64,000 nt of DNA from an uncultured delta proteobacterium (GTDB lineage: Bacteria; Desulfobacterota; Binatia; UBA9968), in assembly GCA_963771465.1 (NCBI GenBank), contig CAVYTU010000008.1, forward strand, positions 286,469 through 350,468. Reading direction: 5' to 3'. A program made the translations under genes and the position numbers. A model generated the notes under the pieces. That model ran no database searches and was not told where the DNA came from. It worked only from the letters and a program-made list of their open reading frames with translations. This document shows, piece after piece, positions 14,048-23,171 of this stretch. Numbering within the stretch: the first letter of the stretch is position 1; the number at the start of each line of letters is the position of its first letter.

Positions 14048-14187
14048 GGCGCCTCCTTATTTAATTCGGATTATTCACAATCCAACAGGTTTCTTTGGAT
14101 ATTTAGGAACCGACACCAAGCTTCGGCCAATGATTCCGTTAAACTAAGTCCGTCTCTGTGGCACATAGCAAACTATCGTTTAGCGAG

Positions 14188-14832
14188 ATGGACGCAAGAA
14201 CACAAACAAATTTCTGGGACCGTCGTATCGTTCCCGCGGCCGCACTGACCGTCTACTTCATCGGTTGCTCGCTCCTTCTCCACCCGTATGACAACCTGCC
14301 CTTTGTAGACGATTGAGCCTACGCGTGGAGCGTCGAACAACTGCTGAAGACCAGAGAGCTACGTATTTCCGACTGGTCGGCTCACTATCCGCTTGCGCAG
14401 ATTGCATGGGATATCTGTTCCGTTTGCCCTTCGGTTTTTCCTTTACCGCGCTGCGGGTCTCGACTGTGGTACTGTCCCTTTTGTCAGCCTCGCCAATATT
14501 GCGTTTTTCTTTACCCTTGGCATCTGCCGGACCGCGCAAGGTATCTGTGGCTGGGGAGCGAGGATCGTTTCACGCGACGCTGTTCGTCGAACGGTTTTGC
14601 ATAGTCTCTGGTGCTTGAAACGGTGCAGTCTGCCATTCGCGCATGGATCACACCGTTCTTAACCGGGCGCAAATTTACGGGCTGCGTCAATCTGCTGACG
14701 AGAGCCTTCGAGAGGTTTACGCGATCGCTTGGCTTTGAGCCGCCCGGCCTGTTCCGTCCCGAGCTTCCACCTATTCGGAAGCAAGGCGAGGCCTCCTACG
14801 GGTTGTTCGTGCTTCTTAGTCTCGTCGTTTAG
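14188..14832 (+). pseudogene. Degraded GT-C (ArnT/PMT-like) glycosyltransferase gene
   Basis: From ATG 14188: ...HPYDNLPFVDD*AYAWSVEQLLKTRELRISDWSAHYPLAQIAW, with TGA at 14314-14316 where W is expected. A frameshift then leads into GYLFRLPFGFSFTALRVSTVVL. The 3' extent is uncertain. Confidence 0.6.
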
Positions 14833-14892
14833 ACATGTCGATTTTTCGATTACTTATATAAATCAAAAGCTTGCGTACCCAGCATCCATTTT

Positions 14893-15034
14893 ACAGCTCT
14901 AGAGGTTTGTGTAGACAGCTGTTTTCGCAGGCCTGGATAAGCTGTATCAAATTAGTAAATCAGCTCTCCACCTATTGCAATGCAGCTGGTTGGCTGATAG
15001 AAAGACAGCTCTTAAATAGAATGTTTAGAGCTGA
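14893..15034. repeat. Array of seven palindromic AGCT-core octamers (consensus ACAGCT[G/C]T) at 22-23 bp period
   Basis: AGCT starts at 14895, 14917, 14940, 14962, 14984, 15007 and 15029; spacers are unrelated to each other; the array ends 17 nt before the ATG at 15052. Confidence 0.85.
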
Positions 15035-15051: not shown

Positions 15052-16162
15052 ATGAAACTTACTTTTCCTGTCATAAGAGGAAGCATGGGTAGGCGAGAGT
15101 ATTATTCGCTCCTGGTTCCGCTTTCAGAGATTCCTCATTTATTCAAATTTAACGATTGGGCAGGATGTACTCCGGAATTGCAGGCGCAAAGGGTGCTGAA
15201 TAAGGCAAGGGTTCCGGATATCACGAACTACATACTTGAAAATGATGATGGGTTTTTGTTTTCATCTATCACCGCTTCCTACTCTTGTCCCGTAAAGTTC
15301 ACCTCTTCAGCAGAGTACGCCGACGTTGGCACTTTAGAGATGGACTTCGAAAACCTGGAGCTTATTATCAACGATGGCCAGCATCGGTGCGCGGCGATTG
15401 CTGCGGCACTCAAAGAGAATCCTGCGCTTGGGAAGGAAAAAATCTCGGTGCTTCTCTTTGAGACGGAAAGTATGGAACGGCTTCAGCAGATGTTCTCAGA
15501 TTTAAATCGATTCGTGCAGCAGACGTCAAAATCGCTAGGGATGCTCTATGATCGTCGAGATAACCTTTCCGCGCTCACAATGGAGTTGGCCGAGCAGGTC
15601 GACGTATTCCGAGACATGGTGGAGAAAGAGAAAGTAACGATTCCGCGGAGGTCTCCCAAGCTTTTTACCATCTCGGCTTTATACGAAGCGAATGAAGAAT
15701 TGCTGGGTAAAAAAATCGCTGAACAGGGATCACCGGTGTACGGAGAGATTCTCAAGACGGCTGTCGATTACTGGACAGAGCTTTCGCAGATCATTGGTGA
15801 CTGGCAAAAAGTCAAAAATGGCGAACTTAGCGCTTCCGAACTCCGCCAAGAGAAGATCAATACTCATGCGGTTGTTTTGCGTGCGCTCGGAGGGCGTTGG
15901 CAAAACGTTGCTCGAAAAATATCCTGAGAACTGGCGGGGAAAACTCAAACTTCTCGAAAGGCTTGATTGGCGGAAAACCGTAGATAGTAGCGCGAATCCT
16001 CTGTGGGATGCCGTGTGTATCACCGCGGGTTCAGTCGTCTCCAACAGACAGGCACGAGCAGCTACTTTCGCGGTCTTGTTACGAGAAATCGGCGAATCGC
16101 CAAACGGAAAAGTGACACACAAAGAATCTGCGGAGGTGACTAGTGCGCAGGCGACTGAATAA
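15052..16162 (+). CDS. dndB: DndB-like DGQHR-domain protein, frameshift near 15895
   Basis: FPVIRGSMGRREYY, QRVLNKARVP, FSSITAS, INDGQHR, QQMFSDLN, KLFTISALY. The C-terminus continues in ORF 15692-16162 (GVGKTLLEKYPENW...DWRK...W). Confidence 0.8.
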
Positions 16163-16226
16163 TCGAAACCACCGTAAAAATTCTACCGTTGCCGATCGGC
16201 AGGGAGCTGCCGGGGGCGCTCTCAGC

Positions 16227-18118
16227 GTGGTTAGTGCCGATGCTGCGGAGGATCGATCTACAACTCGCCTGTGGCAGTTACTTCCAACTGCATGGAACTT
16301 AATCCGACCCTACTGGTCCTCGGAGGACCGCTGGGCGGCGTGGGGGCTGCTCGTCGTCGTGGTCGGACTCACCCTCGGGATGGTTCATATCAGTGTGCTC
16401 TTTAGTTATTGGAATAAAGCATTCTTCAGCGCCCTTGAGAATAGAGACCAAACCGCCTTTCTCCATCAACTGCTCCGCGTGTCGTGGCTAATCGGTATCT
16501 ATCATCGTCTTCGCCGTCTATCAGCTTTACCTGAATCAGATGCTCGAGATCCGCTGGCGGCGCTGGCTTACCGAGCGATACCTTCGCGCTTGGCTGGCCG
16601 ATGGAGCTTATTATCGGATGCAGCTCGACGCGCGTGACACCGACAATCCCGACCAACGCATCGCTGAAGACGTTCACCTGCTGGTTTCCCATACCCTCAC
16701 TCTTCTTATGGGAGGATTGCGGGCGGTGGTGTCGATGGCTGCTTTTATGGGAATCCTCTGGTCGCTCTCCGGGACGTTCACGGTCCCGCTTGGCTGGTTC
16801 TCTCTCAGTTTGCCGGGCTACATGGTGTGGGCGGCCATGTTATACGCTATCGGCGGGACTTGGCTCACCGACCGGATCGGTCGCCCACTCGTGGGCCTAA
16901 ATTTCGACAAGCAGCGTTGTGAAGCCGACTTCCGGTTCAGCCTAGTGCGCTTTCGCGAGAACGCCGAGGGAGTCGCGCTCTACCGCGGCGAGGCGGACGA
17001 GTTACGTTCTTTCCGCGAACGGTTCGAAGCGGTAGTGACCAATTGGTGGGGCATCATGCGCCGACATAAGCGGTTGACTTGCTTCACTTCAGGCTACGGC
17101 CAAGGGGCCTGGATTTTCCCGTCCGTCATGGCGGCGCCGCGTTACTTCCGAGGCGAGATTGCGCTCGGAGGGCTCATGCAGACGATCGGGGCTTTCAGCC
17201 AGCTACAGGATTCGCTAAGCTTTTTTATCGACTCTTATAAAGTGATTGCTGAATGGTGCTCGGTGGTCGAGAGGCTCTCCGGGTTCGAACGCGCACTCGA
17301 GCACGTGCTGATTCAGGCGGCGAATGGCGGAGGCGTCCGCAGTCGATGAGCGGCCAGCGGCTCATTTAGCTGTAGAGGGTGTGGATCTCCATCTGCCTAG
17401 TGGTCAGCCGCTCATCGCCAATGTGAATCTCTCGCTCCAGAGCGGCGACACAGTACTCCTAGGGGGAGCTTCGGGATGCGGCAAGAGTACGCTGGTTCGT
17501 GCCATGGCGGGAATTTGGCCTTTTGGCCAGTGGCGAGATCCGCCGACCGCGTCGGCGCGCGGGTCCTCTTTCTTCCGCAGAGACCTTACCTGCCGATCGG
17601 TACACTTCGGGAAGTGGTGAGTTACCCGATGCCAACGGGTGGGTGTGATGACGCGATACTGCGTGAGGCGCTACTGGCCGTCGGGCTCCCTGGGTTCGCC
17701 GAACGGCTTAGCGAGGCTGGCCATTGGGCGCTCCAACTTTCCCCCGGCGAACAGCAGCGCATCGCCTTTGCCCGCGCGCTGGTACAGAAGCCCGAGTGGC
17801 TGTTCCTTGATGAGGCGACCTCGGCAGTCGACGAGGCTACAGAGGCGCGTCTTGTATCGACTGGTGCGCGAGCGGCTTGCCGGCACGACTGTATTCAGCA
17901 TCGGTCATCGGGCGACATTGCGTGCGTTCCACGCTCGCCAGCTTTTGGTGCGGGCCAACGGGGCAGGGACCTTCCTCGATCGTAGAAGTGACCGCCGTGC
18001 CGGAATCGGCTCGAAGCAATTCCGCCACTTCCGATGCACGACAAAGTCGCTGCAATGGCTGGGTAATAATCGCGACCGAACTATAACGTCTAACGATCTC
18101 CGGTCGTTACCACGTTAA
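16227..18118 (+). CDS. YddA/BacA-like (ABCD-type) fused ABC permease/ATPase, several frameshifts
   Basis: PYWSSEDRW, IRWRRWLT, DNPDQRIAED, EADFRFSLVRFRENAE, Walker A GASGCGKST, LSPGEQQR, LDEATSA spread over ORFs 16143, 16540, 17324, 17476 and 17639; ends approximate. Confidence 0.82.
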
Positions 18119-18411: not shown

Positions 18412-20124
18412 TCAAGGCGGAAGTTGGATGCCTGCCTTCGCGTACGATTCTTCAAGCTTTGCCAAACCTTCTCTATCTTCGGTGAGATCGTAGACAAAAA
18501 TAGAGTATCCGATCTTGGCTATCGGCTGTCGCGTCCACAACCAGCGAAATAGCGGGTAATAAGCGGTCGAAACATCTTGCAAGTTGTAAACGCTGATTGC
18601 CAGAATTTTGCGCGGGGCTGTGGCCGGAACTTTGTCCGCGGGCGGCGGCCATTCTAAAGGCCACGCTCCGGGCACGTATTGATAACGAATGCCGTAATAG
18701 GATGGAGGAGCGGTACCGAAGTATGACAAATAGATCATCGGAAGATTGTTTTTATCGATATAGGCCTTGAGGCCTTCCAGGTCCTGGCCCCAGTCGAGAT
18801 TCGAATCGCTCAGGTAGCGATAACCTTCTTCGGGTCCCCCAACGAGTTCATTGAAGTAAGCCAGCTGATGCGGTGCAACCCGGAGCGAAGAGATAGCCGT
18901 CAAGACCACTGGGATCCCGATAAGCACGGGTGCGAGCCAGGGGCGGTGGAGTCGGACCGTTGCAAGTCGCGACGCGAGGACGAACAAAAGGGGATACACA
19001 GGAAGAAGATGGCGCAGACCGATACTGATCTTCGACTGGGTCATAACGGTAAAGAAAATGACCACTGGCAAGAGAAGAACAATGGCGTCACGCCGCCTGA
19101 GAGGAGATCCGGCTCTATAAAATGCAAAGGACGCAAATATTAGAGCAAGACTGCCGATTGGCGTCTTGATTAGAAAAGAGATTATGAAATAGCTCCACCA
19201 GCCCTGGTAGGAATATTCTCCCAAGAAAAAAGCCAGCAGGCCTGCTTGGGCCAAACTTAAAAACTCAAAAAGGCCGGATAGCCACGGCTGAAATCCCTGA
19301 AAAAAGTAAGCTGACGGAACCGTAAGGAAGGCAAGAAAAAGTATGAGAGAAAAGACCGCTGCTGCCTGAAAGAGCTTGTGCCGTAGCTCGTCTTCATTCT
19401 GTTTTAAGGGCAAGAGAGTATAAGGGTTCCGATCGATTATAAGAGGTAGAGCAACGATCAAAGCGAGGGTGGGAATAAGGAGAATCGCTGAATATTTAGA
19501 GAGTAAGGCCATGCCTGTAGAAATGCCGGTGGCGACCAGAACCCACCATCGGGGTGAATTGAGATACTCCCAGAGAAGGTAGAGAGCCAAGAAAATAAAT
19601 AGAGTGACGCCGATGTCGGTAGTTATGAGAGAGGAATGCGCGATGAGAATCGGCTCCAAAGACGCAAGCGCCATGGCCAGCATCGCTGCGCGATTACCCC
19701 AAAGTCGGTAGGCCCACCATCCGGTGAGCACTAAGAGGACGCCGCCGAGAAACAAATTAGGCAAGCGACTCAGAGCAAGGATTCGATCAGCCGGAACTGC
19801 GGATTTGTACAGGAAGTCACGCCCAATGAGATAACCATATCGGTCGTGCCAGAGTTGTGGATCGGGATTGAAAGGGAGCCGATGGACTAGAAAGAGCGGG
19901 AGTGCGAAAAGCTCTTTGAGCAGCGGCGGGTTTTGCGGCTCGAGGCGAAAGTCTTTCTTTGTAAGATAGGAGTACCCTGCAGCGAGATGCATGGCCTCGT
20001 CAACCGTTTGAGAGTTGGCGCGAATGAAGAAAGTTCCCTGCACGAAAAAACCGAGCAGTATCAATACCGCTCCAATGAGCGCGGATTTAGTTGTGAATGA
20101 AATCAAAGTACTCGTGCATGCCAT
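18412..20124 (-). CDS. GT-C fold glycosyltransferase (ArnT/PMT, GT39/GT83-like), copy 1
   Basis: TVDEAMH, NPPLLK, HSSLITTD, SKYSA, LSDSNLDWGQDL; multiple TM segments. Confidence 0.85.
   Translation of the reverse strand: MACTSTLISFTTKSALIGAVLILLGFFVQGTFFIRANSQTVDEAMHLAAGYSYLTKKDFRLEPQNPPLLKELFALPLFLVHRLPFNPDPQLWHDRYGYLIGRDFLYKSAVPADRILALSRLPNLFLGGVLLVLTGWWAYRLWGNRAAMLAMALASLEPILIAHSSLITTDIGVTLFIFLALYLLWEYLNSPRWWVLVATGISTGMALLSKYSAILLIPTLALIVALPLIIDRNPYTLLPLKQNEDELRHKLFQAAAVFSLILFLAFLTVPSAYFFQGFQPWLSGLFEFLSLAQAGLLAFFLGEYSYQGWWSYFIISFLIKTPIGSLALIFASFAFYRAGSPLRRRDAIVLLLPVVIFFTVMTQSKISIGLRHLLPVYPLLFVLASRLATVRLHRPWLAPVLIGIPVVLTAISSLRVAPHQLAYFNELVGGPEEGYRYLSDSNLDWGQDLEGLKAYIDKNNLPMIYLSYFGTAPPSYYGIRYQYVPGAWPLEWPPPADKVPATAPRKILAISVYNLQDVSTAYYPLFRWLWTRQPIAKIGYSIFVYDLTEDREGLAKLEESYAKAGIQLPP
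18431..19007. repeat. Direct repeat of about 577 bp, copy 1 (3' part of GT-C gene)
   Basis: Near-identical to 20310-20886 (offset 1879); four mismatches seen by eye. Confidence 0.92.
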
Positions 20125-20290: not shown

Positions 20291-21976
20291 TCAGGGCGGC
20301 AGTGTAATCCCTGCCTTCGCGTACGATTCTTCAAGCTTTGCCAAACCTTCTCTATCTTCGGTGAGATCGTAGACAAAAATAGAGTATCCAATCTTGGCTA
20401 TCGGCTGTCGCGTCCAGAGCCAGCGAAATAGCGGGTAATAAGCGGTCGAAACATCTTGCAAGTTGTAAACGCTGATTGCCAGAATTTTGCGCGGGGCTGT
20501 GGCCGGAACTTTGTCCGCGGGCGGCGGCCATTCTAAAGGCCACGCTCCGGGCACGTATTGATAACGAATGCCGTAATAGGATGGAGGAGCGGTACCGAAG
20601 TATGACAAATAGATCATCGGAAGATTGTTTTTATCGATATAGGCCTTGAGGCCTTCCAGGTCCTGGCCCCAGTCGAGATTCGAATCGCTCAGGTAGCGAT
20701 AACCTTCTTCGGGTCCCCCAACGAGTTCATTGAAGTAAGCCAGCTGATGCGGTGCAACCCGGAGCGAAGAGATAGCCGTCAAGACCACTGGGATCCCGAT
20801 AAGCACGGGTGCGAGCCAGGGGCGGTGGAATCGGACCGTTGCAAGTCGCGACGCGAGGACGAACAAAAGGGGATACACAGGAAGAATATGACGCAGACCG
20901 ATGTTCACTTTCGCTTGGCTCGTAGCAACGAAGATAAACACCACGGGTACTAATAGTAAAATCGCTTCGCGCCTGCCAAGTCGGGTGCCGACGCGGTAAA
21001 AAGCTAGCGACGCTGCGATCAGTATGAGACTGCCGATCGGTGTTTTAATGAGAAACGATACTATAAAATAGTTCCACCACCCTAGGTAAGAGGATTCTCC
21101 GAGGAAGAAGGCGAGCCGTCCCGCATGGGCCAAGCTCATAAACTGCTCCAAACCGGAGATCCAAGGAGTAAAGCCTTGAAATAAGTAGGCTGGAGGAATC
21201 GTTACGACGGCAAATGATAGAATCACAAAAAACACGGCTGCTGCCTGAAAGAACTTGTGTCGTGGCTCATTTTTATTCCGTTCCAAGGGCAAGAGAGTAT
21301 AAGTGTTGATTAAGAACAATAATGTAATGATCAGAGCAATTATCGGAATGAGAAGAAGCGCTGAAAATTTAGAGACAAGCGCCAAGCCTGTACAAATGCC
21401 CGTGAGCGCTAAAACCCACCATTTGGGTTGATTTAAATACTCCCAAAGAAAATAGAGCGCGAGAAAAATGAAGAGGGCGACACCAAGATCGGTAGTAATG
21501 AGGGAGGAATGAGCGACGAGATTCGGTTCCAAAGACGTAAGCGCCATGGCTAGTATGGCGGCGCGGCTTCCCCATAGACTGTAGGCCCACCAACCCACCG
21601 CTAGTACCAACACGCCTCCGAGTAATAAATTAGGGAAGCGACTTACAGCAAGTATTCCATCCGCAGAAAGCGTGGATTTGTACAGGAAGTCCTGTCCGAT
21701 GATGTAACCGTCCGCGCCACGCCACTGTTGTGGATTTGGATTGAAGGCGGGCCTGTAAATTATGAAAAGAGGAAGCGCTTGAAGTTCTTTTATGAGGGGG
21801 GGATGCTCAGGATCAAGACGAAAGTCTCTTCTGTCAAGATAAGAATACCCTGCTGCGATATGGATTCCCTCGTCGTAGGTTGGCGAGTTGGTCCAGATGA
21901 AAAAGGCGCCCTGCGCGAGGAATACGACGAGAAAAAGTGTTCCGGCGCCGGCAAATTTAATTGTATTCAGACGCAA
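20291..21976 (-). CDS. GT-C fold glycosyltransferase (ArnT/PMT-like), copy 2
   Basis: TYDEGIH, HPPLIK, HSSLITTD, SKFSA, LSDSNLDWGQDL; start uncertain (TTG 21976 chosen; ORF open to 22108). Confidence 0.85.
   Translation of the reverse strand: MRLNTIKFAGAGTLFLVVFLAQGAFFIWTNSPTYDEGIHIAAGYSYLDRRDFRLDPEHPPLIKELQALPLFIIYRPAFNPNPQQWRGADGYIIGQDFLYKSTLSADGILAVSRFPNLLLGGVLVLAVGWWAYSLWGSRAAILAMALTSLEPNLVAHSSLITTDLGVALFIFLALYFLWEYLNQPKWWVLALTGICTGLALVSKFSALLLIPIIALIITLLFLINTYTLLPLERNKNEPRHKFFQAAAVFFVILSFAVVTIPPAYLFQGFTPWISGLEQFMSLAHAGRLAFFLGESSYLGWWNYFIVSFLIKTPIGSLILIAASLAFYRVGTRLGRREAILLLVPVVFIFVATSQAKVNIGLRHILPVYPLLFVLASRLATVRFHRPWLAPVLIGIPVVLTAISSLRVAPHQLAYFNELVGGPEEGYRYLSDSNLDWGQDLEGLKAYIDKNNLPMIYLSYFGTAPPSYYGIRYQYVPGAWPLEWPPPADKVPATAPRKILAISVYNLQDVSTAYYPLFRWLWTRQPIAKIGYSIFVYDLTEDREGLAKLEESYAKAGITLPP
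20310..20886. repeat. Direct repeat of about 577 bp, copy 2
   Basis: Matches 18431-19007. Confidence 0.92.
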
Positions 21977-21998
21977 AGGATATACTTTGGAAGGCCAA

Positions 21999-23171
21999 TC
22001 AGTTGAACCCCGCCGTCTGCAAGAGCGTTTTAAGGACGCGGTCGGCAGCGAAGCACTCGCGCGCCACCTCAGCGGCATGGGCGGCCGCTCGCTCGTAATC
22101 CGACTCAATTATCTTGACTGCTTCAGCGGCTTCTTCGACAGTTTGAAACGCGTGTAATCCCGGCCCGAGAGGCAGAACTTCCCCGAAGCCGGTGTCGTGT
22201 TCCACAGCGGGTCTCCCGGCGGCCAAGTAACAGGCGGCGCGATCACTGAACCAGCCGGTTCGCAGTTTGATATTCATTTCTTTCGCCACCGTAAACTCAG
22301 CGCGGGAGTTGCATAGATAGTTTCGATATTGCCAAGGATCGAATGAGACCTCTTCGGGATTGACCAATTTCCAGCCGTGTCCGGAAAGCAAATCGGCGTC
22401 TCCCGGGACACTCTGAACGTTCATTGCAAGCTCGAATGAGGCTCCGGTTCGCGCCGGCAAGGCAAGAAACCCGAGCCATTCGCGGCGTTTTTGCCAGTGA
22501 AGAGTCTCGCCTCGATACTTTATGTCGCGACCCGACGTATTCCAGACACCGACGGTGGTATAGCAAGGTCCCGGCGGCATGGTATTTTTCCAGAGCTTCA
22601 GCACTACTGGTTGGCGCGTGGGATACCAGTCCATGCCAGCTGTCGGGGTATCAGATCGAAGCGTGCCGATGTTTTCACCGAAAGTGAAAAGCTTGTCATA
22701 GCTCTTTAAGAGCTTACGCAGAATGTCATCGCCATTTACGAGTCTCAACTGTGTATAAGCAGGATCCGAATCGATGTAGATCGACTGTGCGCCTGCTCGC
22801 CTCTCGAGTGAGATATCGTTTACATCTCCCAGGTTGATCAACAGATCCGCCCCACGGAGAAGCTCCTCGGCTAATTTGGCTCCAGGCCCATACCTCACGC
22901 CCCGCTGGCTATCTATAAAACACCAGTGATCGCCAAAGCCGACGCGTTCCAGAAACTCCCCTGCCGTTTTGATTCCGTAATCGTACGAAGGGCCGTACTC
23001 TTTAGTGATAGGATTGTACGCCAGGCTGTAATGAGCCGTGTCCTCATAGAACCACACGTCATAGCCTAACGATTTGAGGCCTAGGAGATAGTGCGCGGCC
23101 TGCCACGCATAGCCGCCGATCGGAAAGCGCACCAGGTACCCGGCGAAAACGATTCTCAAATTACGGTTCAT
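21999..23171 (-). CDS. Putative GT-B glycosyltransferase (CgeB/YkvP-like C-terminus), paralog D
   Basis: YLLGLKSLGYDVWFYED, YIDSDPAYTQ, FTFGENIG, SRAEFTVAK, GWFSDRAACYLAAGRP. Confidence 0.7.
   Translation of the reverse strand: MNRNLRIVFAGYLVRFPIGGYAWQAAHYLLGLKSLGYDVWFYEDTAHYSLAYNPITKEYGPSYDYGIKTAGEFLERVGFGDHWCFIDSQRGVRYGPGAKLAEELLRGADLLINLGDVNDISLERRAGAQSIYIDSDPAYTQLRLVNGDDILRKLLKSYDKLFTFGENIGTLRSDTPTAGMDWYPTRQPVVLKLWKNTMPPGPCYTTVGVWNTSGRDIKYRGETLHWQKRREWLGFLALPARTGASFELAMNVQSVPGDADLLSGHGWKLVNPEEVSFDPWQYRNYLCNSRAEFTVAKEMNIKLRTGWFSDRAACYLAAGRPAVEHDTGFGEVLPLGPGLHAFQTVEEAAEAVKIIESDYERAAAHAAEVARECFAADRVLKTLLQTAGFN

Follow-up and report, generated by a model that had tools for sequence, protein, structure and literature searches.

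Seven phased AGCT boxes over the promoter of an orphan DndB-family gene: a probable autoregulatory operator in an uncultured Binatia bacterium

A stretch of 64,000 nucleotides from an uncultured delta proteobacterium of the class Binatia (the window; contig CAVYTU010000008.1, positions 286,469 to 350,468) carries a regular row of short sequences with AGCT cores directly upstream of a gene of the DndB/DGQHR family. The locus raises the question of what such a row does. An earlier note on this DNA, made from the letters of the window, offered three answers: a cooperative operator, a parS-like loading array for the adjacent protein, or a switch sensitive to modification at AGCT. Here these answers, and others suggested by the data, are weighed against the sequence of the locus, the rest of the genome, and related loci (L numbers) in other organisms.

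The array and the promoter it overlaps

The region upstream of the gene contains the following features.

14893..15034, no strand: AGCT box array, predicted operator; seven phased boxes, consensus S-AGCT-S
14894-99 CAGCTC, 14916-21 CAGCTG, 14939-44 AAGCTG, 14961-66 CAGCTC: boxes 1-4
14983-88 CAGCTG, 15006-11 CAGCTC, 15028-33 GAGCTG: boxes 5-7
14975..14980, + strand: -35 hexamer TTGCAA, lying between boxes 4 and 5; all 12 aligned promoters share its TTG
14995..15003, + strand: extended -10 element TG-n-TAGAAA, at a 17-bp spacer from the -35, between boxes 5 and 6
15006..15033, + strand: inverted pair formed by boxes 6 and 7 (CAGCTCT ... AGAGCTG), enclosing the predicted start site and leader
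14861..14873, + strand: exact match to the IHF consensus WATCAA-N4-TTR; left edge of the module

The seven 8-mers first described, with AGCT cores at 14895, 14917, 14940, 14962, 14984, 15007 and 15029, are all present; the core-to-core steps (22, 23, 22, 22, 23 and 22 bp) and the end of the array 17 nt upstream of the ATG (15052) are likewise as claimed. Their description as palindromes is accurate for the 4-bp core of all seven boxes, and for the full 6 bp of only two. The spacers are unrelated, as had been said (pairwise identity 12-38%), which rules out tandem duplication as the origin of the array. Nor does the array have the make-up of a tandem repeat or iteron (whole units alike, accompanied by a Rep gene); among 73 neighbour proteins scanned from related loci, a replication initiator appeared once (L064).

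The phased array is real. Shuffling, proposed earlier as a control, gives a mean of 0.03 three-box matches against five overlapping ones in the window. AGCT chains at 22-23 bp in the 6.9-Mb genome comprise 23,216 singles, 138 pairs, none of three to six boxes and one of seven; the window array is the sole chain of at least six for any of the 256 4-mers in the whole genome, and eight boxes placed randomly in 230 nt gave at most five in phase over 200,000 trials. A genome scan for other phased copies, looser boxes included, found no second array, and a genome-wide regulon is therefore rejected. Single S-AGCT-S boxes, of which this genome holds more than 8,000, are too short and too common to mark a site, so that specificity would have to come from phasing.

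The candidate promoter proposed earlier stands in one half: TTGCAA at 14975 is conserved, but TAGAAT at 15017, the suggested -10, is 36 nt away from that hexamer, and relatives do not conserve it. The -10 element listed above has an invariant TA and a nearly invariant G in a 12-sequence promoter alignment. CTGATA/TAGAAT, an alternative pair from a consensus scan, has no support from conservation. Boxes lie on both sides of the -35, within the spacer and over the start region. Contigs of an RNA run (X2) cover the array, a fact with no bearing on transcription or start site.

The IHF-like box contains an out-of-phase AGCT (14868). Homology with L001 begins beside this box (14849) and runs to the stop of the second gene downstream (18066); the flanks differ. 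Upstream of the module, window 14180-14780 is a degraded remnant with stops, part of which resembles a membrane-protein gene of L010. On the far side, 18412-20124 and 20291-22108 (- strand) are two tandem, partly near-identical ORFs, labelled membrane glycosyltransferase-like on reading their sequence; relatives of these ORFs adjoin the module in several Binatia loci.

The DndB-family gene and its genome

Two overlapping genes follow the array.

15052..16162, + strand: gene of the DndB/DGQHR family (some 369 codons in relatives), broken in this assembly by an extra base near 15892-15895
16143..18066, + strand: SbmA/BacA-like ABC transporter gene (ABC_membrane_2 and ABC_tran), overlapping the dndB stop and carrying, as assembled, several single-base frameshifts

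The first gene belongs to the DndB/DGQHR family by its matches to PF14072 (297 bits over residues 5-281, cut-off 29.1, and 26 bits in the next frame) and TIGR03187 (216 bits, cut-off 58.85) and by its DGQHR motif; D108-G-Q-H-R112 is invariant in 73 aligned relatives. Against TIGR03233, the canonical DndB equivalog (cut-off 328), this split query scores 294 bits over its first 291 residues and 23 in the second frame. In L001 the gene is open over 369 aa and 96% identical to that of the window. The extra base is absent from close-strain contigs in three runs (X1-X3) of four, the fourth having no contig across the spot, and close-strain contigs also lack extra bases near 16501-16503, 17349 and 17530-17553 in the transporter gene. 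The dndB frameshift is thus likelier an assembly error than a strain-private lesion, and a true pseudogene, in view of the same contigs, is rejected as the default reading.

A model of the protein (AF2, from the 73-sequence alignment) has a pLDDT of 86 and a pTM of 0.59; a single-sequence fold reached pLDDT 35. The N-terminal domain (residues ~12-156) modestly matches ParB, Noc, KorB, PadC and sulfiredoxin (Srx) in two structure searches: the top Foldseek rows have probabilities of 0.95-0.99 with a best E of 3.4e-3 and none at or below 0.001, and the ParB, Noc and KorB matches in VIA have Z 6.5-7.0 and rmsd 3.2-3.4 over 94-98 residues. At these modest scores, the domain has the N-terminal nucleotide-binding fold of the ParB/Srx superfamily. 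The C-terminal domain (159-353) is helical and found only generic helical matches, which give no indication of a new fold. The residues that distinguish clades of the family (325-337; see below) fall where the last helix of the model begins and immediately ahead of it, a region that may be a DNA-reading surface. Sequence searches of the PDB found no DndB structure.

Neither dndC nor dndD has a match in this 99.4%-complete genome, and the window genome does not hold a Dnd phosphorothioation system (dndBCDE). DndB genes are patchy, being found in 10 of 201 genomes of the class and in 1 of 4 congeners.

Arrays, proteins and neighbouring genes across relatives

Examination of the DNA upstream of homologs, the check suggested in the earlier note, came out in its favour. 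At least four AGCT in strict 21-23 bp phase precede the gene in 38 of 78 genome relatives with enough upstream DNA (from the best 80 of 283), rising to 45 of 78 when one skipped box is allowed, and in 25 of 63 such metagenome relatives (from the best 80 of 583); these counts are descriptive, the relatives sharing kinship. Three phased boxes occur in 0 of 374 upstream regions of other ORFs in those genome loci. Pair distances between AGCT peak at 22, 44, 66, 88 and 110 bp, and steps number 208 of 22 bp, 50 of 23 and 20 of 21 (mean 22.1 bp); the consensus of the relatives' boxes is S-AGCT-S, with AT-rich spacers. Hosts, by record title, include Binatia, Acidobacteria, Alphaproteobacteria, Nitrospira and Verrucomicrobia, and two are named organisms, Sulfitobacter aestuarii TISTR 2562 (L037) and Neorhizobium sp. 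SOG26, on a plasmid (L094). Sampling of DndB in 300 genomes around each of two other hosts gave 1 and 2 matches (one genome unscored), and E. coli had no match to any array-type locus.

The boxes also keep fixed registers with the promoter. Among 54 array loci with a called promoter, a box ends directly before TTGACA in 24 and lies 9 bp after the first T in 18, the two registers together accounting for 42; the window promoter has the second.

A FastTree tree of 144 proteins (excluding 13 distant proteins as well as loci whose upstream DNA or ORF was short) places the arrays in one DndB clade of 109 members (support 0.968) with the motif (G/N)SV(V/L)SNRQAR. In a motif-blind period test of 101 of these 109 (six operon-internal genes and two near-duplicates dropped), chains of at least four at period 22 were found in 82, and at seven other periods in at most 6; the corresponding counts at period 22 are 0 of 22 in the sister clade and 1 of 8 for canonical dndC-linked genes. 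Promoters of the subclade average 4.9 AGCT and 0.3 ACGT, and those of canonical genes 0.5 AGCT and 2.4 ACGT. The sister clade (DVVNRRQ motif; residues D327/N330/R331) has ACGT-rich promoters.

On some branches within the array-bearing clade, all boxes change together and keep their register. The four boxes of L015 read GATGTC, and its C-terminal motif is VTHRQ in place of VSNRQ; GACTC boxes (L034, L139, L143, L146 and L176) and GGCTS boxes (L027) occur in six loci that all have C270-A271; box cores in L016 are AGTT/AACT. Such concerted change along the protein's own branches is what a linked reader of the boxes predicts. The link between residue and box is loose, since the AGCT array of L032 is intact despite its C270-A271, boxes are altered in L059 with those residues unchanged, and independent events are few. 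The array is absent in L036, L042, L055, L142, L144 and L169, mostly with long C-terminal extensions, and also in L045, L049 and L057; most of these nine array-less relatives keep the SNRQAR motif. Operon-internal genes have two exact boxes upstream (L052, L116, L117 and L121) or none (L046), and the array stands at the operon promoter even where a small gene intervenes (four boxes in L043, three in L141).

Several observations concern other branches. In the sister clade (L062:6140-6430 and 21 other loci), DndB is followed by a PC4-like gene and RM or helicase genes; ACGT boxes are phased at 22-23 bp in only a few members (L068), and likewise in L184 on a neighbouring branch. Four CTTCC-type boxes at 21-22 bp steps lie upstream of a canonical dndC-linked dndB (L083), and L100 has GACTTCC three times at 11- and 12-bp steps. 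Phased operators with other cores may be a family-wide DndB trait, as the promoters of L083, L100 and L188 suggest. Long-tailed DndB-like proteins in L074, L078 and L175 are accompanied by RTAAACA boxes, spaced at 21-23 bp in L078.

Viral contigs gave no DndB match in a single-protein scan, and an alignment scan found nine distant DndB relatives, none with an AGCT array. An array-first search of the same kind of contigs returned 20 loci, and the DNA fetched around them contained no DndB: 17 are perfect tandem repeats, two are degenerate repeat fields and one has unrelated spacers. The last (L212:420-489) consists of four S-AGCT-S boxes at 22 bp beside TTGACA, and could be chance or a decoy operator.

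These data bear on the idea that another host factor binds the array, or that an iteron-like or duplicated repeat merely lies beside dndB. An IHF-like box within 110 bp upstream of the first box occurs in 10 of 73 array loci and in 1 of 363 control stretches, an enrichment not corrected for AT content, and the 17 viral repeats have perfect 11- or 22-bp units with AGCT and no DndB nearby; but the unrelated spacers, the occurrence of one and the same box from Binatia and Acidobacteria to Alphaproteobacteria, Nitrospira and others, a box identity that tracks the DndB tree rather than host taxonomy, and the finding of the four-box pattern in 0 of 400 other genomes of the phylum make this very improbable.

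The genes that follow dndB are diverse. Over 76 array loci, the next gene encodes the ABC transporter in 17, a GHKL ATPase in 15 and another product in 34 (including caspase/TIR, Schlafen, helicase, OLD-like ATPase and RM enzymes); ten have no downstream DNA. The pairing of dndB with an SbmA/BacA-like ABC transporter, as in the window, recurs in 20 related loci. Genes for tRNA lie in 5 of 57 loci, indicating no tRNA-site preference. An unannotated ORF of about 100 aa directly follows dndB in L037:6110-6421 and 8 other loci, and in five others DUF3892 takes its place or lies just upstream.

A protein of about 790 aa with GHKL motifs and no Pfam or PADLOC match follows dndB in L016:6120-8492 and 32 other loci; its GHKL label comes from an atlas lead and from motifs visible in the alignment. 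An amino-methylase is present in the locus for 12 of the 15 GHKL array loci, and one with an SPPY motif in 25 of the 33 GHKL loci (e.g., L028:8435-9640, - strand). By their sequences, ATPase and methylase together are a candidate for an undescribed defence cassette.

This methylase is one reason to consider that the array senses modification, with a methylase or phosphorothioation marking AGCT and so gating the binding of DndB and the operon; phosphorothioate sites near the Streptomyces dndB promoter, moreover, affect dndB expression, according to the accessible part of that study (PMC6186775). Against this, none of the 76 array loci has dndC or dndD nearby, although the queries used did detect dndC next to dndB at canonical loci; AGCT is not depleted (observed/expected 0.98 in the window genome and 1.04 around GHKL loci); and the cassette methylase has motif-level matches only, which point to no target. 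In the window genome, where single-protein queries also found no relative of the cassette methylase or the GHKL ATPase, the modification switch suggested earlier finds no support, a verdict that does not extend to methylase-carrying relatives. As an account of the array in general, it appears quite unlikely.

A parS-like loading site, at which a ParB-fold clamp would load and spread for partition or KorB-like silencing, with promoter overlap secondary, agrees with the resemblance of the N-terminal domain to ParB, Noc and KorB and with the single array per genome. ParB clamp loading is not known to require strict phasing or fixed promoter registers, both of which are seen here. The module is chromosomal in this genome and its flanks change; no ParABS system (ParA ATPase with ParB and parS) was recognized, ParA-like genes lying near 3 of 76 array loci and adjoining dndB in none (one ParA query). 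We regard this reading as unlikely. Of the pair put forward in the earlier note, then, the parS-like array has lost ground, and the operator has gained from conservation across phyla, fixed registers and box changes along the protein tree. The same evidence favours its view of array and DndB as a module, which is indeed orphan with respect to dnd; it does not stand alone, given its overlap with the ABC transporter gene.

Some relatives have long leaders. Their last box breaks the phase, following its predecessor at 43-60 bp, and in 17 of the 19 cases that were found automatically it matches the reverse complement of the first transcribed box exactly; shuffles gave 4.6 such cases on average and 13 at most. 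The two boxes form the outer stem of a leader structure with an inner TGAGCG-loop-CGCTCT hairpin, upstream of dndB-like genes.

L017:4932-4988, L026:4926-4984, L036:4924-4990 and 27 more: leader structure examples (alignment A2)

Across these 30 leaders, hand-picked for the inner hairpin, every one of the 320 cells of the 11-pair structure is paired, and six of its pairs have changed on both sides. No shuffle out of 500 did as well, and slid controls reached 22-49% pairing. Hand-picking and kinship inflate these figures. Rfam models at gathering score had no matches in 14 long-leader loci. Boxes 6 and 7 of the window are a short form of this stem, and the final two boxes are inverted relative to each other in 18 of 26 arrays, compared with 37 of the 115 remaining adjacent pairs. 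The covariation, and the survival of the leader in relatives that lost the upstream DNA array, speak for a function at the RNA level, the boxes being arms of an mRNA leader structure. Five of the seven window boxes, however, are upstream of the -10 and cannot be in this transcript, and pairing covers the last two boxes only and leaves the 22-bp phasing unexplained; as the explanation of the array, an RNA function is exceedingly improbable.

The array as an operator, and known systems

The array is probably an autoregulatory operator of the adjacent DndB-type protein, acting through cooperative binding, promoter block and reset by a nucleotide. This reading builds on the observed phasing, promoter overlap, linkage and box variants. 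One protein unit would bind each box; because the core is palindromic, the unit is probably a dimer. Units two helix turns apart would share one face of the DNA and could cooperate through their ParB-like domains. A filled short array would cover the -35, spacer, -10 and start site, repressing dndB and the cargo gene, here an SbmA/BacA-type importer and in relatives mostly defence genes. A nucleotide bound at the DGQHR pocket may free or reset the array, so that the operon would switch steeply between on and off; the trigger could be, for example, entry into a new host or a shift in nucleotide pools. We infer binding, cooperativity, repression and trigger from Salmonella DndB and from the binding of ATP and GTP by a DndB-like protein, the latter as given in the accessible portion of a preprint (bioRxiv 10.1101/2025.10.10.680097).

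DndB of Salmonella enterica Cerro 87 represses its own dndBCDE operon through two promoter sites, and the trigger of this regulation is unknown, as far as the available text of that paper goes (PMC4507180). The two systems have in common a PF14072/DGQHR protein, a gene placed first in its operon, short palindromic boxes over the gene's own promoter and, here presumptively, repression of the gene itself and of those downstream. They differ in that the Salmonella operator consists of two TACG-N10-CGTA motifs and the present one of four to eight S-AGCT-S boxes at 22 bp, and in that dndC and dndD are missing here, the cargo being an ABC transporter or varied defence genes. No TACG-N10-CGTA occurs in the window promoter sequence, and a canonical dndB promoter, from Salmonella Infantis, contains ACGT four times in steps of 8-11 bp but neither AGCT nor a 22-bp chain. 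By analogy, the operator would work like that of Salmonella DndB, yet it belongs to no Dnd system and lacks that motif.

Defence islands have other repressors, namely the controller (C) proteins of RM systems and BrxR/CapW, which are HTH or WYL proteins, and reportedly RptR. Like these, the DndB-type protein is a portable regulator placed first before many different defence cassettes; unlike them, it would combine a ParB-fold nucleotide sensor with a long phased operator. ParB, KorB and Noc are NTP-binding clamps. The present protein shares with them (PDB 7bm8, 8qa8 and 7ol9) a ParB/Srx-like N-terminal domain, and KorB is also a transcriptional repressor according to the title of its PDB entry; but the helical C-terminal domain does not clearly match the DNA-binding domains of these clamps, the boxes are of 6 bp in a phased row rather than one long palindrome, and ParA is rare nearby.

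The parH centromere of TP228 is said to be an array of short, degenerate boxes that are bound cooperatively. BldC forms cooperative multimers on direct repeats, in the accessible account of that protein (PMC5859096). The present array resembles both in that specificity would be built from short, degenerate boxes bound cooperatively. It differs, as far as the partly available sources allow a comparison, in its unrelated protein (BldC is MerR-like and the parH binder a ribbon-helix-helix protein) with a nucleotide-binding domain in the binder itself, and in the palindromic cores and two-turn period of its boxes.

A search of the full-text literature, judged mostly by titles and abstracts and with supplements and subscription papers outside its scope, found no description of phased arrays at orphan dndB genes. 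A search for Tdp proteins found no paper, and the accessible part of the preprint on SroE of SPbeta gives no operator. New here are the correction of the promoter, the test of the frameshift, the comparison of box variants with residues, the tally of cargo and the leader stem.

A wider proposal, which we put forward only tentatively and hold to be less likely true than false, is that this DndB subclade left phosphorothioation and became a portable master switch, gated by nucleotide, that governs defence and transport cassettes. The protein might polymerise into a short filament on its phased 6-bp boxes and read them through residues near 270 and 327-331, box and protein co-evolving as orthogonal pairs. 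In one branch a further layer of control might have been added, the first transcribed box pairing with the box ahead of the ribosome site to close an undescribed mRNA leader, which may also be read by DndB or a partner.

The role of DndB is disputed: it is a transcriptional repressor in Salmonella, and has been argued, in the accessible text of another study (PMC10853773), to be a possible nucleotide-degrading effector or nuclease. The array offers a defined substrate, its naturally occurring box variants have counterparts in variants of the protein, and two of its hosts are named, so that the question can be tested directly. A ParB-fold protein apparently gains its specificity here from the helical phasing of tiny boxes, and the array can serve as a DNA signature by which unannotated defence cassettes, the GHKL ATPase-methylase unit among them, may be found.
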